From an uncultured Chloroflexia bacterium (GTDB lineage: Bacteria > Chloroflexota > Chloroflexia > Thermomicrobiales > UBA6265), in the NCBI GenBank assembly GCA_963724295.1, contig CAVRUC010000005.1, positions 202,492 through 266,491 of the forward strand: DNA of 64,000 nucleotides, in the 5' to 3' direction. This document shows positions 1,752 to 15,499 of this stretch, piece by piece; within the stretch, counting starts at the first letter, position 1, and each line of letters starts with the position of its first letter. Made by a program: the position numbers and the translations under genes. The notes under the pieces were generated by a model. It was not told the DNA's origin. It saw only the letters and a list, made by a program, of their open reading frames with translations, and did no database searches.

Positions 1752-2861
1752 ATGTTTGAAGCGTCCGCCGCGTCGGATCCGCGGCCAGTACCGCACCCGA
1801 CGCCCAGCTTGACCCGGGTAGAACCGCAATCCGACCCGTTCACCGAGGCGATCGCCCCGCGCGCGATTTCCCTCGGCGGCCCCGGCGCGGGCAATCTCTC
1901 CACCTTCACGATCAGCGCGCGCTTGCAAGGGCGGAGCGTCCTCACCGATACGGACCTGACCCGCGACGAAATCGTGGAGGTGATCGGGACCGCTGCCCGG
2001 TTGAAGAAGCTGCGCCAGGCAGGTCAGCCGCACGGATACCTGGCGGGCAAGTCGCTCGGCATGATCTTCCAGCACCCCAGCACCCGCACCCGGGTCGCGT
2101 TTGAAGCGGGTATGGCGCAGCTCGGGGGTCAGGCCATTTTCCTCGGCGTCCACGACTTGCAGATCAAGCGCGGCGAGAGTCTCGCCGACACGGCGCAGGT
2201 GTTGAGCCGCTACGTCGACGGCATCGTCGCTCGCGTCGCCGCGCACAGCGATATCGAGGAGATCGCCGCGGCCTCAGCGGTGCCCGTCCTCAACGGGCTC
2301 TCCGACCGGTGCCACCCGATGCAGGCGCTCAGCGACCTTTTGACGATGCAGGAGGTCTTCGGCGACCTCCCCGGGCGCAAGATCGCCTATCTCGGCGACG
2401 GCAATAACATGGTCCATTCGCTGCTGCTGACCTGCGCCGTGATGGGCATGAGCGTCACCGTGGCGTCGCCTGAAGGCTACCAGCCCGATCCTGAGGTCGT
2501 GAACCACGCGCGGTGGCTGGCCGCGGCCAGCGGCGCCGATCCCGAGATCGTCATCACTGATGATCCGATGGCAGCCGCCAGCGGCGCCGATGCCATCTAC
2601 ACCGACGTTCACGTCAGCATGGGTCAGACCGACGCCGCGACCCGAGCCGTAGCCCTGGCGCCGTACAAAGTGACCACCAGGATCATGACCGCGGCAAAGC
2701 CGGCGGCCGTCTTCATGCACTGCCTACCGATGCACCGGGACCAGGAGGTCGAAGCCGTCGTGGCCGACGGACCGCGCTCGATCATCTTCGATCAGGCCGA
2801 AAACCGGCTCCATCTGCAGAAGGCGGTGCTCCTGCACACCCTCTGTCCGACCGTGGCCTAG
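1752..2861 (+). CDS. argF: ornithine carbamoyltransferase-family protein, paralog 1 (about 65-aa Pro-rich N-terminal extension)
   Basis: Motifs present: FQHPSTRTR (carbamoyl-phosphate site), HPMQALSDLLT, DVHVSMG and HCLPMHRD. The start at ATG 1752 was chosen because SD GAAGGGGG (1739-1745) sits 6 nt upstream and is the target of the T-box sequestrator. The track ORF start at 1437 would run through the riboswitch. Confidence 0.85.
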   Translation: MFEASAASDPRPVPHPTPSLTRVEPQSDPFTEAIAPRAISLGGPGAGNLSTFTISARLQGRSVLTDTDLTRDEIVEVIGTAARLKKLRQAGQPHGYLAGKSLGMIFQHPSTRTRVAFEAGMAQLGGQAIFLGVHDLQIKRGESLADTAQVLSRYVDGIVARVAAHSDIEEIAAASAVPVLNGLSDRCHPMQALSDLLTMQEVFGDLPGRKIAYLGDGNNMVHSLLLTCAVMGMSVTVASPEGYQPDPEVVNHARWLAAASGADPEIVITDDPMAAASGADAIYTDVHVSMGQTDAATRAVALAPYKVTTRIMTAAKPAAVFMHCLPMHRDQEVEAVVADGPRSIIFDQAENRLHLQKAVLLHTLCPTVA

Positions 2862-2875
2862 GGAGCGATAAAGCG

Positions 2876-3892
2876 GTGCACATGGTCATCGACGGTTACA
2901 ACGCAACAGGGGCAGGTGGTCAGGTCTTTTCCTGGATCGACGACCCAGCCGCGCGCGTCGCGGCTCCCGGTTTGCACGGCCGCAGCGTTCTCTCCGACCT
3001 CGACTTATCGCGCGCCGACGTCGATGCCCTGGTCGAAACCGCGCTCTGGCTCAAGATCCAGCGGGAGCGAGCGCAACCGCACCCATACCTCGCCGGGAAA
3101 ACACTGGGCATGCTCTTTCAACATCCGAGCACCCGCACCCGCAATGCCTTCCAGGCCGGCATGGAGCAGCTTGGCGGACACGCGACCTTTCTCGGCGCGG
3201 ACGAGTTGCAGCTCACCCGCGGCGAGACCCTGCCCGACACCGCCAGGATTCTCAGCCGTTACGTCGACGGTATCGCCGCCCGTTTCTCCGCGCACGACGA
3301 TCTCATCGTCTTCATGGGCGGCGCCTCGATTCCGGTCTACAACGCGCTCACCGAACGCTTTCACCCCATCGAGGCGCTGAGCGATTTGTTGACCCTGCAC
3401 GATCAGTTCGGCGGCCTCAAGGGACTGAAGCTTGCCTACGTTGGGGATGGCAACAACGTTTGTCACTCGCTGATGCTCAGCGCCGCCGCCGCGGGTATGC
3501 ACGTCGCCGTTGCCTCTCCCGACGCCTTCGCACCCGATCACACGCTCGTCGAACGCGGGCGGGAGCTTGCGGCACAGGCCGGCGGGTCGGTCCTCGTCAC
3601 CGAAGACCCGGTACAGGCCGTCACCGGAGCCGACGCGGTCTACACCGACGTCCACGAGAGCATGGGTCAGCCGGACGATCCACAGAAGCGGCTGGTCCTG
3701 ACGCCATACAAGGTGACCGTGGCGCTGATGGCGGAGGCGCGCCCAACCGCTGTCTTCATGCACTGCCTGCCGATGCAACGGGACATGGAGGTGGAAGCGG
3801 CCGTAGCGGACGGTCCGCAATCGATCGTATTCGAGCAAGCCGCGAACCGGCTGCACATGCACAAGGCCGTGCTCCTGCTGACGATGGGGTAA
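2876..3892 (+). CDS. ornithine carbamoyltransferase-family protein, paralog 2 (HPxQ changed to HPIE)
   Basis: Motifs present: FQHPSTRTR, DVHESMG and HCLPMQRD. The HPxQ motif reads HPIEALSDLLT. The gene is tandem to paralog 1 with a 14-nt gap. The start is GTG 2876 or ATG 2881, after GGGAGCG. Confidence 0.85.
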   Translation: MHMVIDGYNATGAGGQVFSWIDDPAARVAAPGLHGRSVLSDLDLSRADVDALVETALWLKIQRERAQPHPYLAGKTLGMLFQHPSTRTRNAFQAGMEQLGGHATFLGADELQLTRGETLPDTARILSRYVDGIAARFSAHDDLIVFMGGASIPVYNALTERFHPIEALSDLLTLHDQFGGLKGLKLAYVGDGNNVCHSLMLSAAAAGMHVAVASPDAFAPDHTLVERGRELAAQAGGSVLVTEDPVQAVTGADAVYTDVHESMGQPDDPQKRLVLTPYKVTVALMAEARPTAVFMHCLPMQRDMEVEAAVADGPQSIVFEQAANRLHMHKAVLLLTMG

Positions 3893-3982: not shown

Positions 3983-4147
3983 ATGGACGTGACCTGTCCG
4001 GAATGTGGCGCCGAGTTGGCATTGAGCGGGGTCGAGCAGGGAGAGATCGTCACCTGTCCTGACTGTGGGGTCGATCTCGAAGTACTCACCTCCGAGCCGA
4101 TCACGGTCGGTCTCGCCCCCGAGGAAGGCGAGGACTGGGGCGAATAG
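3983..4147 (+). CDS. lysW: amino-group carrier protein LysW (54 aa, absent from the ORF track)
   Basis: Hand translation gives [54 protein letters not shown]. It has two CxxC pairs (zinc ribbon) and the diagnostic acidic C-terminus EDWGE. An AAGGAAGG SD lies upstream, and the gene sits inside a LysXZYJK cluster. Confidence 0.9.
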
Positions 4148-4175
4148 ACGCAAGCCAGAGGTATCTGGAGCGAGG

Positions 4176-5108
4176 ATGACGGCAGAGAAGGGGTCCGCGA
4201 TGGCAACGGTAGGCGTGCTCTGTGCGCGCGGTCGAGTCGAAGAAAACGCACTCATGGCGGCGCTGGCGCAAGCTGGCATCGTCTCTGCGCTCTTCCCGCC
4301 CGCGGACGAACCACTGCCAGTCGGACCGACGTCGCATTCGCCGACCGGGCGTCCCTTCCCCGTGCCGCAGATCGTCGTCGATCGCCATCCAACCCGCCAG
4401 ATCGCCCGCGCGGTAATTGCGACGTGCGGTGCGCTCGGTGTACCGGTGCTCTGCGCCGGCATCGCCGCCACTGGCGACCGTCTGGACGTGGCATCTGCCT
4501 TGGCCGGCCACGATCTGCCACGTCCGCTGACGGCCCTGTGCACCTCGGAAGATGCCGGAATCGAGGCCGTTGCCGCGATGGGACTGCCGGCCACGCTGCT
4601 GCCGCTGGAGCTGAAGTCGGCGCCGATCGCCCTCCTCGACCGGGACGCCGCCGAGGCGGTCCTCGAACACCGCGCCGTGCTTGGCGGCGTCGAAGGTTCC
4701 CTGGGGCTCATCCAGGCCGGGTCTCCGAGCACCGAACATCTCGTGAACGTGATCGTCGTCGACGGAGCGGCCACCGCCGTCGAGACCAGGACCGGCACCG
4801 CTGTTCCGGATCAGGCCATGCGCCTCGCCGAGTACGCCGCCGGCGCGCTGAACGCGGACCTCGTGGCCATCGTTATCGCCTTGCGCTCCGGCGGCCCGGT
4901 GATCTGGGACGCCCGCCCGGTCCCGGATTTTCGCGACGCGATGCCGATCGGGAATCTCACCGTTGCGCAATCGATCGCCCAGGCAGTCGAGCGCAGACTG
5001 CTGACCACGGCCTCGGGTCTGCCGGGAGAGCGAGACCGGACGTGGACCGGTATCTCCTCCAGCACCCAAGGACAAGGACTGCGACGTGATCTCGTCATCA
5101 GTGCCTGA
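4176..5108 (+). CDS. LysX/RimK-like ATP-grasp paralog with degenerate active site (probable pseudoenzyme)
   Basis: It aligns along its length with the two downstream LysX proteins (for example VGVLCARGRVEENALMAALAQAG against [23 protein letters not shown]). However, KPxxGSWGRLL is replaced by LELKSAPIALL, QE(Y/F)V by QAGS, and the D...EVN metal site by AIVIAL...WDARP. The start is ATG 4176 or 4200. The 3' end overlaps lysK by 23 nt. Confidence 0.7.
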   Translation: MTAEKGSAMATVGVLCARGRVEENALMAALAQAGIVSALFPPADEPLPVGPTSHSPTGRPFPVPQIVVDRHPTRQIARAVIATCGALGVPVLCAGIAATGDRLDVASALAGHDLPRPLTALCTSEDAGIEAVAAMGLPATLLPLELKSAPIALLDRDAAEAVLEHRAVLGGVEGSLGLIQAGSPSTEHLVNVIVVDGAATAVETRTGTAVPDQAMRLAEYAAGALNADLVAIVIALRSGGPVIWDARPVPDFRDAMPIGNLTVAQSIAQAVERRLLTTASGLPGERDRTWTGISSSTQGQGLRRDLVISA

Positions 5109-6189
5109 CATCGCACCGGCAGCCGCGTCCGGGACCGTGGCGCCGGGAGATTACGACGTCGACCTGCTGCGGCGTATGGTCGAGATCCCAAGTCTGTCCG
5201 ACGAGGAGCATGCGGCAGTGGCGGAGCTCTGCCGTCAGATGGAGGCGCGCGGCTTTCGCGCCGAGATCGACGCCGCTGGCAACGCGATAGGAGTGATTGG
5301 CTCCGGAGAGCGCCATATCGTGCTCCTCGGGCATATCGACACGGTCCCCGGTCAGATCCCGGTCCGCATCGAGAACGGCGAGTTGTGGGGCCGCGGCGCG
5401 GTCGACGCCAAGGGACCGCTCTGCACGTTCGTCGCCGCGGCCGCCGCGGCCGCGCCGGACCTCAGCGCCACGGTCACGGTCGTCGGTGCGGTCGGGGAGG
5501 AGCGTCTCGGTTCTCCCGGCGCTAATGCCGTCGCCGCCTGGGATGCCCCGGACTACTGCGTCATCGGCGAGCCAAGCGGCTGGGACGCCGTCTGCCTCGG
5601 CTACCGCGGCACACTCGGGTTCCACTACCGGCTGCGCCAACCATCACGCCACAGCGCCGGACCCGGCGAATCAGCCGGCGAGCAAGCGATCGCGTTCTGG
5701 AACGCCTTGGTGGCCGAGCTCGATGCCATGAACACCGCAAGTGGTGCCACCACCGGGTTTACGACTATCGCTCCCGCCCTGCGCGAGATGCGCTCCGGCG
5801 GGAACGGGTTGGAAGACGAAGCCGTCATGTCGATTGGTCTTCGCCTCCCACCCGGAGTCGATACGGACCGGCTCCACGGACGCCTGCGGGAGCTCGCCGC
5901 TCCGGCGGTCATTGAGGTCGACGGAGTGCAGCCGGGCTTTCGCTCGCCGAAGCAGACGCCGCTGGTGCCGCCGTTCCTGCGCGCGATTCGTGCCGCGGGC
6001 GGTTCGCCCCGCTTCACCCTGAAGCTGGGAACCTCTGACATGACTGTCGTCGGCCCGGTCTGGAACTGCCCCATGGTCACCTACGGCCCGGGAGATGCGT
6101 CACTCGACCACACGCCTCACGAGCGGATCGATCTCGAGCACTACGGTCTTGCCATCCGCGTCCTGCGTGATGTCCTGGTGTCGCTATGA
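5086..6189 (+). CDS. lysK: [LysW]-lysine/ornithine hydrolase, M20 peptidase family (ArgE/LysK)
   Basis: Motifs LLGHIDTVPG and GRGAVDAKGP are M20/ArgE-DapE signatures. GTG start. The stop overlaps the next start (ATGA). Confidence 0.85.
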   Translation: MISSSVPDIAPAAASGTVAPGDYDVDLLRRMVEIPSLSDEEHAAVAELCRQMEARGFRAEIDAAGNAIGVIGSGERHIVLLGHIDTVPGQIPVRIENGELWGRGAVDAKGPLCTFVAAAAAAAPDLSATVTVVGAVGEERLGSPGANAVAAWDAPDYCVIGEPSGWDAVCLGYRGTLGFHYRLRQPSRHSAGPGESAGEQAIAFWNALVAELDAMNTASGATTGFTTIAPALREMRSGGNGLEDEAVMSIGLRLPPGVDTDRLHGRLRELAAPAVIEVDGVQPGFRSPKQTPLVPPFLRAIRAAGGSPRFTLKLGTSDMTVVGPVWNCPMVTYGPGDASLDHTPHERIDLEHYGLAIRVLRDVLVSL

Positions 6190-7100
6190 CCGCACCCGGT
6201 CTCAACGGTCACTCCCGCCTCGCTGCATCCCGTCCCGACCGGCTCGGGGTGCTCGTCTCCTACCTCCGCCCCGAGGAGAAGTCGATCCTGGCCGCGGCCC
6301 GCGATCGCGGCATCGAAGTCGCGCCGATTTTCGATCGCGATCTCGTGCTCGATCTGTCGTCGCCACACGCTCCGGGCAGTGGGCTCGATTTCGACGTCGT
6401 CCTCGACCGCTGCGTCGCCCACTCGCGCTCCGGTTACACCTTGCGCGCGCTGCGACGCTGGGGCGTCCCGACCCTGAATACCGCCGAGGCGGTCCGGCTC
6501 TGCGACGACAAGGCCGAGAACAGCCTGGTTCTGGAGGCGGCTGGCATCCCTACTCCACGCACGCTGATCGCCTTCGACGTCGCATCCGCGCTGCGGGCCT
6601 GCGAAACCCTCGGCTATCCCGCCGTGCTCAAACCGGTCACCGGCTCCTGGGGCCGCCTCCTGGCCCGCGTCAATGGACCCGATCAGGCGCGGACGGTGCT
6701 GGAGCAGAAGAAAGAGCTTGGCTCCTTCCATCACGCGATCTTTTATGTCCAGGAATACGTCGAAAAACCGGACCGGGACATCCGCGCCTACGTCGTCGGT
6801 GACCGCGTGCTGGCTGCGTCATACCGCACCGCGAAGCACTGGGTCACGAACGCCGCCCGTGGCGCCGAGTCCGTGCCCTGTCCGATCACCCCCGATATCG
6901 AGGAGCTTGCCCTCCGCGCCTGCGCCGCTGTCGGCGCCCGCCTGGCCGGTGTCGATCTGATCGAGACTGGTGAAGGTCTGGAGGTCATCGAGGTCAATAC
7001 CGGCGGCGAGTTCAAAGGACTCATGTCCACCACCGACGTCGACATCGCCGGCGCAATCGTCGACGAGGCCATGCGCACGGCGCGTCTGGGAGTCGCATGA
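6186..7100 (+). CDS. LysX/ArgX-family ATP-grasp ligase (carrier-protein-amino-acid ligase), divergent copy
   Basis: Intact motifs: [49 protein letters not shown] and VDLIE...[13 protein letters not shown] overlaps occur at both ends. Confidence 0.85.
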
Positions 7101-8014
7101 ACGCTCCCCTGATCGTCGGCGTCCTTCTCTCTCGTGTGCGCGTCGAGGAAAAGCTGCTTCTCGCCGAGCTGGAGCGGCGCGGTGTCGAGATCGTTCGCTT
7201 CGACGACCGCGAGTTCTGGCTCGACCTCGGCGCCCCCGACCTTTCGATGCTGCGCTGCGATGTCGTGCTGGAGCGCTGCATCAACCACCTGCGCGCCCTC
7301 TATACCTTACGCGTCCTGAACGATTGGGACGTACCGACCGTCAACAGCTACGAGGTGGCCAACATCTGCGGCGACAAGCTTCTCACCTCGACCGCATTGG
7401 AACGGGCCGGCATTCCCACGCCGCGGACGCTGATCGCCTTCACGCCCGAATCGGCATTGGCGGCGTGCGAGGAGATCGGTTACCCGGTGGTCATGAAACC
7501 CGCAGTTGGCTCCTGGGGCCGGCTGCTGGCCCGGGTCAACGACCGGGACGCGGCGGAAGCCCTGCTGGAGCATAAGGTCACGCTCGGCTCATTTCACCAC
7601 GGCGCCTTCTACATTCAGGAGTTCGTGCGCAAACCGGGCCGCGACATCCGCACTTTCGTCGTCGGCGACGAAACGATCTGTGCGATCTACCGCGATTCTC
7701 CGCACTGGATCACGAACACCGCCCGCGGCGCCTCGGCCAGCAACTGCCCGGTGAGCGACGAGCTGCATGCACTCTCCCAGGCAGCCGCGGCTGCTGTCGG
7801 CGGCGGCGTGGTGGCCATCGATCTCTTCGAGAGCGACCGCGGTCTGCTGGTCAATGAGGTCAACTACACCATGGAGTTCCGCAACAGCATCGACACTACC
7901 GGGGTCGATATCCCGGCCCGCATCGTTGACTACGTTATCGCGGTCGGTCAGGCGGAACGAGATCGCCGCGACGTGTTAATGGCTCCCGCCGTCGCCGCGG
8001 CTGCCGGCGATTGA
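7097..8014 (+). CDS. lysX: LysX-type ATP-grasp ligase (closest, by recollection, to Thermus LysX)
   Basis: Motifs present: [44 protein letters not shown] and [22 protein letters not shown]. Confidence 0.85.
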
Positions 8015-8772
8015 TGAGTGTCATGTCGGAGCAGATTGAAACCCGGCTGGATTACGACAGACGCGCGACCGAGTTTGCCCTCCATCGCAAGATCCATCCT
8101 GAAGTCCTTCGCGAGCTCCTCGGCAGCGGTTTGTTCGGTCCGGAAACGCGTGTCCTGGACGTCGGTTGCGGTACAGGAAACTACGCCGCCGCACTGACCG
8201 CGGAAACGAGTTGCCGAATCTCCGGCGTCGATCCCTCAGAGAGGATGCTCGACTGGGCCCGCGACGCCGCGTCATGGGAATCCCTGACAAAGTCTGACGC
8301 GGAGCATCTGCCGTTCGGCGCCGGAGCGTTCGACGTCGTCATGTCGACCGACGTCATTCACCACATTCGGGATCGTGACGGCTACTTCCGTGAGGCGGCC
8401 AGGGTGCTGCGAGCCGGGGGTCATCTCGTGACCGTCACTGATTCGCACGACACCATTCCGCGGCGGCGTCCCCTCTCCAGCCACTTTCCGGAAACGGTCG
8501 GAGTCGAGCTGCAGCGCTATCCGCCGGTACCACGGTTGCTGGAGGAGATGGGTCGCGCCGGGTTCGTCGAGCCTCGCATTGTCGAGGTCTCGCGCGACTA
8601 CGAGCTCGACGATATCCAGGCCTACCGGGACCGGGCATTCTCCTCGCTCCTCCTGATCGAGGAGGAGGCGTTTCGCCGCGGGATAAGCCGTCTGGAAGCG
8701 GACCTGGCACGGGGACCCATCCCGTGCGTCTCTCTCTACACGATGATTTGGGGACAATTACCCTGCTCGTAA
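8014..8772 (+). CDS. class I SAM-dependent methyltransferase embedded in the LysW cluster
   Basis: It carries motif I VLDVGCGTGNYA and an acidic post-I region. The start ATG 8014 overlaps the lysX stop (TGATG); TTG 8011 is an alternative. The stop TAA 8770-8772 overlaps ATG 8772. Confidence 0.8.
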   Translation: MSVMSEQIETRLDYDRRATEFALHRKIHPEVLRELLGSGLFGPETRVLDVGCGTGNYAAALTAETSCRISGVDPSERMLDWARDAASWESLTKSDAEHLPFGAGAFDVVMSTDVIHHIRDRDGYFREAARVLRAGGHLVTVTDSHDTIPRRRPLSSHFPETVGVELQRYPPVPRLLEEMGRAGFVEPRIVEVSRDYELDDIQAYRDRAFSSLLLIEEEAFRRGISRLEADLARGPIPCVSLYTMIWGQLPCS

Positions 8773-8807
8773 TGCCTGTGGCGGGATATGGAGGCAGTAG
8801 TCAACCG

Positions 8808-9851
8808 ATGAACGTTTCGATTATTGGCGGCAGCGGATACGCGGGCGGGGAGCTGGTTCGCCTCCTGCTCGATCATCCCGAGGTCACGATCCAGCAGGTG
8901 ACATCCGAGCGCAACGCCGGCAAATTCGTCCGTTCGGTTCATCCCAACTTGCGCAAGCGATCCGACCTCAAGTTCTCGGCACTGGCCGACTTGCAACCGG
9001 CTGACGTCATCTTCAGCGCATTGCCGCACGGCGTCGCCATGGGTCAGATGGCCGAGCTGCGTCAGAAGGCGCCGATCGTCATTGACCTCAGCGCCGACTT
9101 CCGGCTGCGCGATGCCGCCGACTACCCGAAGTGGTACGGCCATGAACACCAGGACCCGGAGCTGCTGGAATCGTTCGTCTACGGCATACCGGAGCTCCAT
9201 CGCGAGGAGCTGCGCGACGCCGATCTGATCTCCAGCGCCGGCTGCATGGCCGCGACCAGCATCCTCGGTCTCTATCCCCTCTTCCAGGCGAAGGTCGTTG
9301 ATCTCTCCCGCCCGGTCGTGGTCGAGGCCAAGACCGGATCGTCCGGGTCGGGCGGCGCACCCGGACTCGGGTCGCATCATCCCGAACGGAGCGGCGCGAT
9401 GCGCTCCTTCAAGCCGACCGGTCACCGCCACTCGGCCGAGATCATCCAGGAGCTGACTGTCGACGGCCAGGGACCAGAGGTCGCCTTCTCCGCCACCGCG
9501 ATCGAGGCGGTGCGTGGCATTCTGGCCACCTCCCACGTCTTCCTCGAGGAGCCCTTGCCCGAGAAGGAGATCTGGTCCATCTACCGGGCGGCGTACAAGG
9601 ACGAGCCATTCATGCGGCTGGTCAAGGAGGCCTCCGGTGTCCATCGCTACCCGGAACCGAAGCTCCTTTCCGGCTCCAACTGGTGTGACGTCGGTTTCGA
9701 GCGTGATCCCAATTCCAACCGCATCGTGGTCATGGCCGCGCTCGACAACCTGATGAAAGGCGCTGCAGGCCAGGCGGTGCAGGCCCTCAACATCCGCTGC
9801 GGATTCCCGGAGACGACCGCCCTCGAGTTCGCGGGGCTCCATCCGATTTAG
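8808..9851 (+). CDS. lysY: N-acetyl-gamma-glutamyl-phosphate reductase homolog, LysY/ArgC type
   Basis: Motifs present: MNVSIIGGSGYAGGELVRLL (NAD-binding N-terminus) and SSAGCMATS (catalytic Cys). GGAGG lies at 8790-8794. The alternative start ATG 8772 is coupled to the methyltransferase stop. Confidence 0.85.
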   Translation: MNVSIIGGSGYAGGELVRLLLDHPEVTIQQVTSERNAGKFVRSVHPNLRKRSDLKFSALADLQPADVIFSALPHGVAMGQMAELRQKAPIVIDLSADFRLRDAADYPKWYGHEHQDPELLESFVYGIPELHREELRDADLISSAGCMAATSILGLYPLFQAKVVDLSRPVVVEAKTGSSGSGGAPGLGSHHPERSGAMRSFKPTGHRHSAEIIQELTVDGQGPEVAFSATAIEAVRGILATSHVFLEEPLPEKEIWSIYRAAYKDEPFMRLVKEASGVHRYPEPKLLSGSNWCDVGFERDPNSNRIVVMAALDNLMKGAAGQAVQALNIRCGFPETTALEFAGLHPI

Positions 9852-10081: not shown

Positions 10082-10921
10082 ATGCTGGTAATCAAGATCG
10101 GCGGCGGCGCGGCCATCGGCGAGGGCGGCTACAGCAACTTTGCCGAGGACCTGGCTACCATCGCCGAGCCGGTCGTGGTCGTCCACGGCGGCAATGCCGA
10201 GTTCAGCGCGCTGAGCCGTCAGCTCGGCATGCCACCGCGCATGATCACGTCGTCCAGCGGGCGCGTCACTCGCTACACCGACGCCGCGACGATGGACGCC
10301 ATGCTGATGGCCTACTGCGGCAAGGTCAACAAGCGGCTCGTCGCTACGTTGCGCAGCGCCGGCGTCAACGCCGTTGGCCTGAGCGCCATCGACGGGGGCA
10401 TCGCCGTCGGCAGACGGAAACCGGTCCTGCGCGGCGCCGAGGATGGCAAGAGCAAAGTGCTTCGGGACGACCACGCGGGAACCCTGGAGTTCGTGGATCC
10501 CTCGCTGGTGGGGCTCTTGCTGCAGAACGGCTACACCCCCGTGCTCACCCCGCCCGCGCTGGGCGAAGCAGGCGTGCCGATCAACGTCGACGGCGACAAG
10601 CTCGCCCTCGAGCTGGCCACCGCGCTGCAGGCGGAGGGCCTGCTCTTCTTCTCCGACACCCCGGGTCTGCTACGTGACCGGCACGACGAAACCTCGCTAA
10701 TCGCCGAAATCGATGCCTCGTCGCCCGAATCGGCACTGGCAGCGGCGGCGGGCCGCATGGTGGTCAAGGTCGAAGCCGCGCTCGGCGCCGTGGAACGCGG
10801 CGTTGGTCGCGTCGTCTTCGCCGATGGTCGCATTGCCAACCCAATCCGGGCGGCGCTAAACGGGCAGGGAACGACCGTCCGACACGCGATGCCCGCGGCA
10901 GCTGAAAAAAGTGATCGGTAA
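10082..10921 (+). CDS. lysZ: amino-acid kinase, LysZ/ArgB type
   Basis: Motifs present: MLVIKIGGGA and VVVHGGN, with an overall acetylglutamate-kinase-like fold. The gene lies within the cluster. Confidence 0.85.
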   Translation: MLVIKIGGGAAIGEGGYSNFAEDLATIAEPVVVVHGGNAEFSALSRQLGMPPRMITSSSGRVTRYTDAATMDAMLMAYCGKVNKRLVATLRSAGVNAVGLSAIDGGIAVGRRKPVLRGAEDGKSKVLRDDHAGTLEFVDPSLVGLLLQNGYTPVLTPPALGEAGVPINVDGDKLALELATALQAEGLLFFSDTPGLLRDRHDETSLIAEIDASSPESALAAAAGRMVVKVEAALGAVERGVGRVVFADGRIANPIRAALNGQGTTVRHAMPAAAEKSDR

Positions 10922-11043: not shown

Positions 11044-12225
11044 ATGACGACCGTCGGAACGCTCGACCTGGCTCAAATCCAACACCTCGAAAATGATCAC
11101 CAGCCACCGCTCTACGCCAAACGGGAGATCGCCCTCGTCCGCGGCGAGGGCGCCTATCTCTTCGACACCGAGGGGCGCCGGTATCTCGACGCCATGAGCA
11201 ACTACGGCGTGGCGATCCTCGGCCACGCCGACCGGGAATACGCCGCGGCTCTCAGCGAGCAATTGCAGACCCTGGCCACCGGCCACCAGAGCTTTTACAG
11301 CGACGTCCGGGCCGAGCTGCTCGCCGAAATCGCGCAGATCGCACCGGCCGGTTTGACGCGCTACTTCCTCTCCAACTCGGGCGCGGAGGCCGTGGAGGCT
11401 GCGATCAAGTTCGCCCGCGTCGCCACCGGACGACCGAATCTCGTCGCGGCCAAGCGCGGCTATCACGGACGGACCCTGGGCGCTCTGGCCGCGACCGCCG
11501 ACCAGAAGTACCGCGCGCCGTTCGAGCCGCTGGCGCCGCACACAACGCATGTCACGTTCAACGACGTCGACGCGCTCGCGGCCGCCGTCGACGACCAGAC
11601 CGCGGCCATCCTGCTCGAGCCGATCCAGGGCGAAGGTGGCATCTGGCCCGCATCCTCGGAATATCTCCAGTCCGCCCGGGAGATCGCCACCGCCCAAGGA
11701 GCGCTCCTCATCGCCGACGAGATCCAGACCGGCTTCCGCACCGGCGCTCCCTGGGCGATGAGCGTGTCCGAGGTTGTTCCCGACGTGCTGGTCACGGCGA
11801 AAGCGCTAGCCAACGGATTCCCGATCGGTCTGACGATGTTTACCGAAGCGATCTCGGAGGCGATCCCGAGCGGCGCCCATGGCACAACGTTTGGCGCCAG
11901 CCCGCTGGCTTGTCGCGCCGCAATCGTTACCCTGCGCGCGCTGCGTGAGCGGGACCTCTATGCGCGGTCGGCGGCGCTCGGCGCGGAGATCATGGAACGT
12001 CTTACCGGCCTCGGTAGTCCGAAAGTGCGCCAGGTGCGCGGCCGCGGCATGATGATCGGGGTCGAGCTCAAGGAGCGTGTTACCCCGACTCTCCGGGCTC
12101 TGCAACAGCGCGGCGTGCTGGTCCTTCCCGCGGGACCCACCACCTTCCGCCTCCTACCCCCGCTCATCTGGGAGCAGGAGCAGGTCGACGAGTTGATCGA
12201 GGCGGTTGAATCAACGCTGAACTGA
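11044..12225 (+). CDS. lysJ: class III PLP aminotransferase, LysJ/ArgD type
   Basis: It has typical acetylornithine aminotransferase features: SNSGAEAVEAAIKFAR, LIADEIQTGFRTG, and the PLP-lysine region TAKALANGFP. Confidence 0.85.
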   Translation: MTTVGTLDLAQIQHLENDHQPPLYAKREIALVRGEGAYLFDTEGRRYLDAMSNYGVAILGHADREYAAALSEQLQTLATGHQSFYSDVRAELLAEIAQIAPAGLTRYFLSNSGAEAVEAAIKFARVATGRPNLVAAKRGYHGRTLGALAATADQKYRAPFEPLAPHTTHVTFNDVDALAAAVDDQTAAILLEPIQGEGGIWPASSEYLQSAREIATAQGALLIADEIQTGFRTGAPWAMSVSEVVPDVLVTAKALANGFPIGLTMFTEAISEAIPSGAHGTTFGASPLACRAAIVTLRALRERDLYARSAALGAEIMERLTGLGSPKVRQVRGRGMMIGVELKERVTPTLRALQQRGVLVLPAGPTTFRLLPPLIWEQEQVDELIEAVESTLN

Positions 12226-12286: not shown

Positions 12287-13687
12287 TCAGCCCGCATTGC
12301 CGGCGCCGCTATCCAATTTCGGTTCGGTCTGCCGGTGCGGATGCAGCGCCTCGTCAACCTGCTCGCGGGTCAATCCCGACTCTTCGTAGGCGAGCTCGCG
12401 CACCGTACGACCAGTCGCGTGCGATTTCTTGGCGATTTTGGCCGCATTGTCGTAACCGATAAGCGGGTTGAGCGCGGTAGCCATGCTGATTGACCCCTCG
12501 ATGTAGCTCTCCGCCTGCTCCCGGTTCGCCTCGAGACCAGCCAGCGCCTTGTCGACGAAGACCCGTGAGACGTTCGCCAGGAGCCGCACGCTCTCCAACA
12601 TATTCCTGGCCATCATCGGCAGCATCACATTGAGGTCGAGCTGGCCCCACTGGCCACCGATGGTGATCGCCTGGCAGTTGCCCGTGACTTGCGCTCCAAC
12701 CTGGATGACGACCTCGCTGATTACGGGATTGACCTTGCCCGGCATGATCGAGCTTCCCGGTTGGATGGCCGGTAGCACCAGCTCGCCCAGCCCAGCCTGC
12801 GGTCCGGAGGCCAGCAGACGAATATCGTTGGCGATCTTCATCAGCGTCGCGGCGAGCGCGGTCAGCGCCCCGGCTGTGAAGACATAGGCATCGCGAGCCC
12901 CTTGCGCCTCGAAATGGTTCTCCGCCTCCCGAAAATGCGTGCCGGTGAGGTCAGAGAGTTCCCGCGCCACACGAGCACCGAAATCGGGATGCGTGTTCAA
13001 CCCGGTGCCGACCGCGGTGCCGCCAATAGCCAGCTCGCGCAGCCCGGGCAGCGTTGCCTCGATGCGCTGGATGGTCAGCTCGATCTGTCGCGCGTAGCCG
13101 CTGAACTCCTGACCCAGCCGGATCGGCACCGCGTCCATCAGGTGGGTGCGGCCGATCTTCACGACGTCGTCGAACGCTTTGGCCTTGCGACCGAGGATGT
13201 CGTGCAGATACTGGAGCGCCGGGATCAGGTCGTTCTCGATCGCGAGCACCGCCGAGACATGCAATACGGTTGGGATGACGTCGTTCGATGACTGTCCGAG
13301 GTTCACCTCATCGTTCGGGTGGACCCTTCGTCCCAATTCGACTGAAGCGACCGCGGCGATCACCTCGTTGGCGTTCATGTTCGACGACGTCCCTGAACCC
13401 GTCTGAAAGACGTCGATTGGGAACTCTTCGTCCAGCTCACCGTCGGCCACGGCGCGCGCGGCATGCTCGATGGCATCGGCCACGTCCGGCGGCAACAGGC
13501 TGAGTTCGCGATTCACTCGGGCCGCGGCCAACTTCACCAGACCCAGCGCCCGGATGAACTCAGCGGGCATCGGTTGACCGGAGATCGGGAAATTCTCAAC
13601 CGCTCGCTGCGTCTGCGCGCCATAGCGGGCCGCGGCGGGCAGGACCACCTCGCCCATCGTATCTCGTTCAACTCGCGTCTCGGTCAT
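12287..13687 (-). CDS. fumC: class II fumarate hydratase
   Basis: Motifs present: GSSIMPGKVNP signature and QTGSGTSSNMNANEVIA. The length is 466 aa. Confidence 0.9.
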   Translation of the reverse strand: MTETRVERDTMGEVVLPAAARYGAQTQRAVENFPISGQPMPAEFIRALGLVKLAAARVNRELSLLPPDVADAIEHAARAVADGELDEEFPIDVFQTGSGTSSNMNANEVIAAVASVELGRRVHPNDEVNLGQSSNDVIPTVLHVSAVLAIENDLIPALQYLHDILGRKAKAFDDVVKIGRTHLMDAVPIRLGQEFSGYARQIELTIQRIEATLPGLRELAIGGTAVGTGLNTHPDFGARVARELSDLTGTHFREAENHFEAQGARDAYVFTAGALTALAATLMKIANDIRLLASGPQAGLGELVLPAIQPGSSIMPGKVNPVISEVVIQVGAQVTGNCQAITIGGQWGQLDLNVMLPMMARNMLESVRLLANVSRVFVDKALAGLEANREQAESYIEGSISMATALNPLIGYDNAAKIAKKSHATGRTVRELAYEESGLTREQVDEALHPHRQTEPKLDSGAGNAG

Positions 13688-13759: not shown

Positions 13760-15499
13760 TCAGTCCGCGGGCTCATTACCCGCAAGTCCCGCATACAACT
13801 CGTCCAGCATCCCGCGCACGGTCGACACTACTTCAGCGAGCGGAACGAAGACGGCTTCGTCCGCCGACCGCAGCTTGATCTCCGCCTCTCCCTTGCCCAG
13901 CGTCCGCGTGCTGACCGAGACACGGACGGGATTGCCAATCAGATCGGCGTCGTTGAACTTGACCCCCGCGCGCTCCGATCTGTCATCGTAGAGCACTTCG
14001 ATGCCGGCCCGCGTCAGCTCGTCGTAGAGCCGGTCAGCCGCATCCTGCGGCTCGGTGTCGTCAGCGCCGCCGATCCACAACAGCGACACTTCGTACGGAG
14101 CGACCGTCACCGGCCAGACGATCCCGCGGTCGTCGTGATGCTGCTCGACCACGGTCGCCGAAACGCGCCCCGAACCGATGCCATACGATCCCATGTAGAT
14201 CGGGTGGCTGATCCCTTCGGCGTCGAGATACTCGGCCCCCAGCGCCTTGGAGTAGCGCGTGCCGAGCTTGAAGATATTTCCGACCTCGATGGCGCGTTCC
14301 GCGGTTAGCGCGGCACCGCACGTCGAGCAGGGGAACCCCGCCTCAGCCGACGCGATGTCGGCCACGACATCCGGCGTGTAGTCGCGCCCGGGGTTGGTGT
14401 TGAGCATGTGCCAGCCGACCCGGTTGGCTCCCGCCACCAGATTCGGCGTATCGCGCACACTCTCGTCGATGACGATCAACGCATCGCGAACCCCGACAGG
14501 TGATCCGTACCCCGGCTCCGCTCCTATGGCCCGGATCTCCTCGACTGTGGCCGGTGTGAGGCCGGTCTCACCGGCGGCCTTGCGCAGCTTCGTCTCGTTG
14601 ACGTCGAGATCGCCCCGGATCACGGCGAAGACGAACCGGCCGGAATCCCCCTTGTAGAACACCGCCTTCGCCGTCTTGGCGAGTGGTATGTTCAAGAAAT
14701 CCGCCAGCGCCTGGATCGTGGTCGTACTCGGCGTCTCGATCTCCTCCATTGGCAGGGGAGCTTCCCCGGTTGGGGCATCGCGTTGGAACGTGGCCACCTC
14801 ACGGTTATCCGCGTAGCCGCACTCCGGGCAGATGAGCACGATATCTTCGCCATAGGACGAGAGGGCCATGAACTCGTGAGAAGCACTGCCGCCCATCATG
14901 CCGGTGTCCGCACCGACGACGACGAAGTCGAGCCCCACCCGGCGGAAGATCCGCTCGTAGGCCCGCCAGTGGTTCTGGTACTGCGCATCCAGCCCTTCCT
15001 CGTCCCGGTCGAGGGTGTAGGAGTCCTTCATCGTGAACTCGCGGACCCGGATCAATCCGCCCCGCGAGCGAGGCTCATCACGCCACTTGGTCTGGATGTG
15101 ATAGACGACCATCGGCAGCTGGCGGTAGGAGCTGACTTCCTGCCGCGCCAGATCAGTGACGATCTCCTCGTGGGTCATGGCCAGAACCATGTCGCGGTCG
15201 CCGCGGTCCTTAAAGCGGGTCAATTCCGGCCCGACGACGTCGTACCGACCCGATTCCCGCCAGATGTCGGCCGGATGGACGACCGGCATCAGCATCTCTT
15301 GCCCGCCGATGGCGTTCATTTCCTCGCGAATGATCTGCTCGACCTTGCGCACAACTCGCCAGCCCAATGGCAGCAGGCTGTAAATGCCCGCGCCCAAAGG
15401 CCGCATCAATGCGGCGCGCAGCATCAGTCGGTGACTGGGCAGCTCGACATCGCCCGGCGCTTCGCGCAGCGTCCGGCCGAACAGGTGTGACATCCGCAT
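13760..15499 (-). CDS. proS: prolyl-tRNA synthetase (bacterial type with editing insertion)
   Basis: The N-terminus reads MRMSHLFGRTLREAP...LMLRAALMRPLGAGIYSLLPLG. Class II aaRS motifs are present and the length is 579 aa. Confidence 0.9.
   Translation of the reverse strand: MRMSHLFGRTLREAPGDVELPSHRLMLRAALMRPLGAGIYSLLPLGWRVVRKVEQIIREEMNAIGGQEMLMPVVHPADIWRESGRYDVVGPELTRFKDRGDRDMVLAMTHEEIVTDLARQEVSSYRQLPMVVYHIQTKWRDEPRSRGGLIRVREFTMKDSYTLDRDEEGLDAQYQNHWRAYERIFRRVGLDFVVVGADTGMMGGSASHEFMALSSYGEDIVLICPECGYADNREVATFQRDAPTGEAPLPMEEIETPSTTTIQALADFLNIPLAKTAKAVFYKGDSGRFVFAVIRGDLDVNETKLRKAAGETGLTPATVEEIRAIGAEPGYGSPVGVRDALIVIDESVRDTPNLVAGANRVGWHMLNTNPGRDYTPDVVADIASAEAGFPCSTCGAALTAERAIEVGNIFKLGTRYSKALGAEYLDAEGISHPIYMGSYGIGSGRVSATVVEQHHDDRGIVWPVTVAPYEVSLLWIGGADDTEPQDAADRLYDELTRAGIEVLYDDRSERAGVKFNDADLIGNPVRVSVSTRTLGKGEAEIKLRSADEAVFVPLAEVVSTVRGMLDELYAGLAGNEPAD

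Follow-up and report, generated by a model that had tools for sequence, protein, structure and literature searches.

A degenerate LysX paralog between lysW and lysK

The present analysis concerns a stretch of 64,000 nucleotides (nt) from contig CAVRUC010000005.1 of an uncultured Chloroflexia bacterium of the order Thermomicrobiales, referred to below, at its full length, as the window. According to Pfam and NCBIfam profile searches, its + strand carries a LysW-type lysine/arginine biosynthesis cluster, and inside this cluster, between the carrier gene lysW and the hydrolase gene lysK, lies a degenerate paralog of the ligase LysX, named psX here (window positions 4176 or 4200 to 5108). Two intact ligase genes, lysXa and lysXb, follow lysK. 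LysW, the amino-group carrier protein, is a zinc ribbon of 54 residues with an EDWGE tail at its C-terminus and an isoelectric point of 4.05.

The psX open reading frame (ORF) ends at a TGA stop (5106-5108) and offers two starts. ATG 4176 has GGAG 5 nt upstream (4167-4170) and leaves a gap of 28 nt after lysW; ATG 4200 has GAGAAGGGG 6 nt upstream (4185-4193) and leaves a gap of 52 nt. The start is ambiguous, but 4200 is the more likely one because many orthologs begin at MATVGVL, its equivalent. An earlier, sequence-only reading of the window had described psX as tightly coupled to its neighbours: the 23-nt overlap with lysK that it reported is exact, while its start at 4176, and with it the spacing to lysW, probably has to give way to 4200 and the 52-nt gap. 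The coding-like composition noted in the same reading was recovered, the GC content at third codon positions being 0.77, as in the neighbouring genes. A gene on the opposite strand was considered and rejected, both long minus-strand ORFs across the region lacking a Pfam match.

Loss of the ligase motifs

Colinearity of psX with the two downstream ligases, proposed from the letters alone, holds, and the latter are intact by profile score (305 and 334 bits against TIGR02144, the NCBIfam LysX model, with a cut-off of 275.6). psX itself scores 43.1 bits against the same model, its residues 13-271 aligning with profile positions 2-275, and 35.7 bits against rimK_fam (cut-off 143.4); its only Pfam match is a sub-threshold LysX_preATP_grasp hit (16 bits, cut-off 27). 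Weak matching to TIGR02144 is common to all 64 psX family members compared, with a best E-value of 1.3e-25. The register of the alignment between psX and LysX was identical in MAFFT, in HMMER against PDB sequences and in hhalign (Prob 99.9, E 7e-36). Below, LysX residues are numbered as in Thermus thermophilus LysX and psX-specific residues from the 4200 start.

All four motif substitutions listed by the sequence-only reading were reproduced when psX was aligned with the products of lysXa and lysXb and with T. thermophilus LysX. CGDK of LysX has become TGDR; V(L/M)KP.xGSWGRLL has become TLLPLELKSAPIALL, with no Gly loop; the adenine hinge QE(Y/F)V reads QAGS; and the Mg-binding D...EVN reads V...WDAR. 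The second of these changes, from VLKP.xGSWGR to TLLPL without the Gly loop, recurs across about 40 divergent representatives of the psX family. The degeneration goes further than had been described, since a 14-residue deletion takes out the NTARGG loop (W199-x-T-N-x-A-R-G-G, including the T201-N202-x-A204-x-G206 positions) and A191, R194, K174, R177, D178 and R180 are also gone. Lost as well are the ATP-phosphate lysine K129, G133-S-W-G-R137, Y167, W199, D237, E240, N251 and E255, and K89 and E249 are replaced by R and D. Across the hinge, the K174/R177/D178/R180 block and the Mg ligands D237/E249/N251, Q169 alone survives. As read from the alignments, the losses span the nucleotide, Mg and acyl-phosphate sites plus the GSWGR loop, and they probably include the "Arg and Ala" substrate residues beside the specificity motif (inferred from PMC10433800 and PMC12998189). 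Catalytic residues retained at shifted positions were sought in the alignments and none was found; this possibility was rejected on the common register of the three alignments and on the absence of any conserved Lys or Asn from the psX family. Binding of ATP or Mg, and with it the formation of an acyl-phosphate, is thus probably beyond psX.

What remains is of two kinds. Common to psX and LysX are R10, E13, G24, R55, Q169, F256 and (K/R)257, together with the lid helix A148-E149...E153-H154...L158. Conserved in the psX family specifically are C8, P34, P38, D61, R66, G87, R94, R108, T132, D147, D149, R158, G174, W236, D237, P240 and R245. Such residues could be taken to mean that psX retains an enzymatic activity, through a reconstructed site or an ATP-free chemistry in which W236-D237, R245, D61-R62 and E156-H157-R158 form the catalytic set, and the family indeed has invariant polar residues of its own, including those of VWDxxPVP(D/E)FR. 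This is nevertheless very improbable: the nucleotide, Mg and acyl-phosphate elements are all absent and one loop is deleted, E156, H157 and R62 are conserved in true LysX too and hence are not new, the pathway lacks no known reaction, and the selection on psX, given below, is relaxed relative to the true enzymes of the operon.

The loading step of the pathway also appears to be provided for. Five-residue specificity motifs have been described for the ligases, F-I-T-NS for LysX, I-Y-V-GF for ArgX and Y-I-T-NA for bifunctional enzymes (PMC12998189). By alignment, lysXb carries F-I-T-NS and is of the LysX (alpha-aminoadipate) type; lysXa carries the unusual Y-S-A-GL, a motif that falls outside the LysX type and resembles that of ArgX at positions 258/259, and the gene may encode a bacterial ArgX-like or bifunctional variant. 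Between them, lysXa and lysXb probably cover both loading activities, so that psX would not be needed as a third ligase.

Predicted fold and degenerate relatives

An AlphaFold2 model of psX computed from the 64-sequence family alignment has a mean predicted local distance difference test score (pLDDT) of 87.9 and a predicted template modelling score (pTM) of 0.86, with the last ~29 residues disordered. In this model psX retains the ATP-grasp fold with its three domains, the N-domain being a pre-ATP-grasp domain of the LysX type. The best PDB matches found with Foldseek have template modelling (TM) scores of 0.70-0.84 (0.73/0.81 to 3vpd, 0.72/0.77 to 3vpb, 0.70/0.81 to 5i47), and the neighbours comprise T. 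thermophilus LysX (3VPD, 1UC8/9), Sulfolobus ArgX (3VPB/C), 5I47, Thermococcus kodakarensis LysX (5K2M) and RimK. With the LysX/ArgX enzymes (3VPD, 1UC8, 3VPB, 5K2M) psX shares homology over the full length, the three-domain fold and the gene cluster, as well as the N-domain R.R.EE motif, R55, the lid helix AEA.LEH and the EF(K/R) motif; it differs from them in falling below the family cut-off, in lacking the catalytic motifs and in the deletion of the NTARGG loop.

The top PDB sequence match of psX (E 2e-13) is 5I47, a "RimK domain protein ATP-grasp" from Sphaerobacter thermophilus, deposited as a structural-genomics entry and cited by no paper in the searched literature. Like psX it is degenerate, with LLADR, VLKSLTVDPGFP, QQF and GVANL in place of the LysX motifs, although it belongs to a separate subgroup (~28% identity to psX) that, unlike psX, retains the ATP-binding Lys and the full length of the NTARGG loop and lacks both the WD..PVP.FR motif and the 23-nt overlap. 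This second degenerate subgroup includes, besides 5I47, P0210 (a 90% cluster with Thermorudis sp. and bacterium HR26), P0213 and P0251. A third, represented by P0230 and others, is of a shorter, 273-aa type. One member of each extra subgroup was checked for genomic position (P0210 for the 5I47-like one), and both occupy the slot between lysW and lysK. The extra subgroups seem to have reached different stages of activity loss, or to have taken routes of their own to it.

Conservation and selection

The psX family is widespread and maintained. A protein search returned 263 homologs from Thermomicrobiales and Chloroflexia metagenome-assembled genomes, essentially all full length and 64-96% identical among the matches listed, and a profile search of 1.84 billion cluster representatives gave 282 matches at E<=1e-3, of which 62 reached E<=1e-30. 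Some 40 full-length representatives, at 31-61% identity, all share the degenerate signature of psX. The motifs that define the family, TG(D/S/T/N)R, (T)LLP(L/M), AEAVLEHRxVLG, Q(A)G and VWDxxPVP(D/E)FR, are all found in the window protein and in these representatives, and at roughly 40% identity about 20 residues are invariant in the family and scattered over the fold.

Among 88 related loci, psX is intact, with neither stops nor frameshifts, in all 74 in which it is fully contained, the 5I47-like locus L008 being excluded from this count; gene decay was rejected on this ground. Three odd database proteins (P0159, P0168 and P0220) look like frameshifted or chimeric assemblies. The ratio of nonsynonymous to synonymous substitution rates (dN/dS), computed for the window and four genome loci, is 0.12-0.27 for psX and 0.06-0.14 for lysXa, lysXb and lysK. 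psX is clearly under purifying selection, about two-fold relaxed relative to its neighbours. The sequence-only reading had proposed that the gene is maintained rather than decaying and had pointed to ortholog conservation and dN/dS as the way to find out; the intact loci, the purifying dN/dS values and the invariant residues all bear that proposal out.

Gene order and coupling to lysK

The position of psX is constant. In the loci counted, lysW stands immediately 5' (66/66 loci) and lysK immediately 3' (67/67 loci), and the order lysW, degenerate gene, lysK is found in all three degenerate subgroups. Two catalytic lysX genes are present in 30 of the 31 loci that reach lysY, the exception, L006, having one; the 5I47-like L008 also has a single catalytic lysX, and the slot of psX is the same with either number of catalytic lysX genes behind it.

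The junction with lysK is closer than adjacency. In the window the GTG start of lysK (5086) and its ribosome-binding site (RBS; AAGGA, 5074-5078) sit within the final codons of psX. The 23-nt overlap, together with an RBS-like purine-rich run (AAGGA or GGAGG) 6-9 nt ahead of the lysK start and within the psX tail, was seen in 8 of 10 inspected loci (the window and L001-L007), including loci at 43-50% protein identity; elsewhere the junction reads TAGATG (5I47-like subgroup) or is an 8-nt overlap (third subgroup). The arrangement argues for translational coupling of psX to lysK, and the tight linkage to lysK suggested earlier from the window extends in this way to divergent relatives. The last ~8 residues of the disordered psX tail are conserved because the lysK RBS and start are embedded there.

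From the same junction one could argue that the psX protein is functionless and that the ORF persists only because its translation feeds ribosomes to the embedded lysK start. Apart from the position of the lysK RBS and start inside psX, the disordered tail and the rank of psX as the fastest-evolving gene of the cluster (mean distance 0.87) speak for this. A pure spacer would drift, however, and the dN/dS of psX stays at 0.12-0.27 over its whole length; the roughly 20 invariant residues lie across the fold, the fold is confidently predicted from the family alignment, and 74/74 loci agree in length and domain order. Of the explanations considered, persistence of psX as a mere ribosome feeder is the least probable and hardly credible.

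Partner signals

Candidate partners were compared by mirror-tree analysis, in which distance matrices were correlated over the 29 loci that contain all six genes, giving 15 gene pairs. psX-LysK ranks at the top of all 15 pairs on both measures, with a raw correlation r of 0.93 and a partial correlation of 0.63-0.75. psX-LysXa follows with raw r 0.86 and the second-highest psX partial, 0.25-0.52; psX-LysXb has raw r 0.72 and a partial of about 0, and psX-LysW raw r 0.60 and a partial of -0.15 to -0.09, about 0, LysW being so short that this estimate is noisy. The psX-LysK signal, weak alone, agrees with the operon coupling. No natural fusion of psX with LysW, LysK or LysX was found among the homologs, and longer homologs, considered as possible partner fusions, were rejected as carrying low-complexity extensions or read-through artefacts.

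These data bear first on the suggestion of the sequence-only reading that psX is a scaffold or chaperone of LysW. In such a role psX would hold the carrier, or loaded forms of it, or give protection to them. Descent from a LysW-binding enzyme and the place of psX directly 3' of lysW in every locus counted favour it, as do the retained R.R.EE motif, lid helix and eight arginines, which would suit so acidic a protein as LysW. The GSWGR loop reported to recognise the EDWGE tail of LysW (PMC10433800) is, however, lost from psX. Moreover, psX covaries with LysK and has a partial correlation with LysW that is about 0, within the noise stated above, and the lysW-psX junction is a gap of 28-250 nt without overlap. 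A LysW scaffold therefore fares poorly here, and we regard it as quite improbable.

A second candidate is the active ligase itself: psX may be a non-catalytic partner of LysX/ArgX, with mixed oligomers that stabilise or regulate the enzyme, for example by sensing lysine or arginine. psX is a paralog of the same fold, pairing of a dead paralog with its active relative is common, the PDB entry of the relative 5I47 contains two chains, and the partial correlation with LysXa is second only to that with LysK. A precedent is documented in a cluster related to amino-group carrier proteins, where Ser4/Ser5 of Serratia form a hetero-oligomeric aminotransferase in which a paralog without the catalytic residue, Ser4, pairs with the active copy, Ser5 (PMC11726168). 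The likeness to psX lies in a dead paralog in such a cluster; Ser4/Ser5 differ in having an aminotransferase fold, a role in secondary metabolism, adjacent genes and an experimentally shown complex (PMC11726168). psX, by comparison, never adjoins lysX, lysK always intervening; its correlation with LysXb is about 0, and its position does not change with the number of ligase genes. Partnership with LysX or ArgX is on balance unlikely, though less so than a LysW scaffold.

A non-catalytic component of the LysW pathway

Taken together, the loss of the catalytic motifs, the retained fold and the selection on the gene support the pseudoenzyme reading first made from the window alone: psX is very probably a selected, non-catalytic component of the Chloroflexota LysW lysine/arginine pathway. 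To our knowledge, accounts of LysW pathways list six parts, enzymes or carrier. In the searched literature no mention was found of a component of LysW systems without catalytic function, nor anything relevant on pseudo-ATP-grasp proteins or on LysW in Chloroflexota, and neither Pfam nor NCBIfam has a model for the psX family; the statement of the sequence-only reading that it knew of no such component agrees with this. Within the carrier-protein pathway for lysine and arginine, psX is probably a part that is not an enzyme and has gone undescribed, kept at the same position across Chloroflexota.

The explanation that covers the observations best as a whole, which we advance tentatively and as somewhat short of probable, is that psX is a selected dead ligase, produced jointly with LysK and serving as a subunit without catalytic function; the tie to LysK in particular, suggested by overlap and covariation, is possible and is proposed with greater reserve. 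Under this explanation the overlap would tie translation of psX to that of LysK and yield similar amounts of the two, and psX would be a subunit or adaptor that binds protein at the last step, in which LysK releases lysine or ornithine from LysW and the carrier is freed. It would act through the remnant of the old substrate cleft, namely an arginine ring (R10, R12, R62, R66, R94, R108, R158 and R245), the N-domain R.R.EE motif and the lid helix AEAVLEHR; the eight conserved arginines lining the former cleft would suit an acidic partner. Such an adaptor might recognise lysine or ornithine while it is bound to LysW, pass the product on or control when the carrier is released. That psX is in this sense a seventh component of the LysW pathway, a dead ligase recycled as an adaptor working with LysK, is a doubtful extension.

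A general parallel is HisZ, a catalytically dead paralog of histidyl-tRNA synthetase that is the regulatory subunit of the ATP-phosphoribosyltransferase HisG. In the role proposed here psX would resemble it, as a dead paralog of an ATP-using enzyme that amino-acid biosynthesis retains for a subunit function without catalysis. HisZ belongs to another fold and another pathway, and its partner and allosteric role have been demonstrated by experiment, whereas those of psX are putative.

Several points weigh against psX as a non-catalytic subunit made with LysK. The rate of psX evolution is about twice that of the neighbouring genes, which makes the constraint on it moderate, and the conserved codons at its C-terminus may be held only by the RBS and start of lysK. 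Translational coupling shows co-expression and not complex formation. The 29 loci of the mirror-tree comparison are non-independent, and adjacency and the fast rates of both proteins can inflate the signal. In the 5I47-like subgroup the ATP-binding Lys is kept, which makes residual nucleotide binding possible in some members. Finally, LysK in Thermus is known to work without such a partner.

The LysW pathways serve as a model for how the synthesis of lysine and of arginine evolved from a shared carrier-protein route, and a dead, selected, phylum-wide seventh part would imply that the Chloroflexota version differs at the step of carrier release or loading. If the proposed role of psX beside LysK is true, a catalytic ligase and its pseudo-ligase paralog would connect the first step of the pathway with the last. 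The family also gives the orphan crystal structure 5I47 a functional context and offers a clean bacterial test case of a pseudoenzyme arising within an operon. There is a practical consequence for annotation: databases label psX family members as LysX ligase or hypothetical, with names such as '[LysW]--L-2-aminoadipate ligase' and 'Alpha-aminoadipate--LysW ligase LysX' on P0001, P0008, the P0210 cluster and others. Through this systematic over-annotation, ligases are over-counted in metabolic reconstructions.

Genes surrounding psX

The genes of the cluster, and the two genes that occupy the psX slot in loci of the extra degenerate subgroups, are collected in Table 1.

Table 1. Genes of the LysW-type cluster in the window and psX-slot genes of the two extra degenerate subgroups
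Gene	Coordinates	Strand	Remarks
argG	up to 1241	+	5' part cut off
Ornithine-carbamoyltransferase-like gene 1 (OTC1)	~1944-2861	+	NCBIfam ornithine carbamoyltransferase (OTC), 389 bits (cut-off 306)
Ornithine-carbamoyltransferase-like gene 2 (OTC2)	2876-3892	+	NCBIfam OTC, 351 bits (cut-off 306)
lysW	3983-4147	+	TIGR01206, 68.4 bits (cut-off 53.2); Pfam Zn_ribbon_LysW, 64.6 bits
psX	4176 or 4200 to 5108	+	310 aa from 4176, 302 aa from 4200
lysK	5086-6189	+	[LysW]-lysine/ornithine hydrolase, M20 family; NF003367, 408.5 bits (cut-off 363)
lysXa	6186-7100	+	intact ligase; TIGR02144, 304.9 bits (cut-off 275.6)
lysXb	7097-8014	+	intact ligase; TIGR02144, 333.7 bits (cut-off 275.6); PDB 3vpd match, E 2e-93
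Class I S-adenosylmethionine-dependent methyltransferase	8011-8772	+	overlaps lysXb and lysY
lysY	8724-9851	+	
lysZ	10082-10921	+	
lysJ	11044-12225	+	
5I47/Thermorudis-type gene	L008 2041-2907		between lysW and lysK; ATP-binding Lys kept
273-aa-type gene	L009 9001-9822		between lysW and lysK

Directly 5' of lysW stand tandem OTC paralogs, of which most related loci have one or two copies at that spot; copy 1 reads HPMQ and copy 2 HPIE. The ~700 nt between the argG stop and the onset of OTC homology (1242-1943), with a comparable gap in L005 and L006, gave no Rfam match, and no RNA elements or tRNAs were detected in the window; the longest ORF there would lengthen OTC1 by ~160 residues that are without homology, and a leader or regulatory region is possible. 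The methyltransferase between lysXb and lysY has counterparts in only some related loci (e.g., L001, L003, L004, L016, L028 and L033), is fast-evolving (dN/dS 0.15-0.20) and has no obvious role in the pathway. Downstream of the cluster, two ORFs on the - strand (12287-13687 and 13760-15499) resemble, by eye, class II fumarate hydratase and prolyl-tRNA synthetase.

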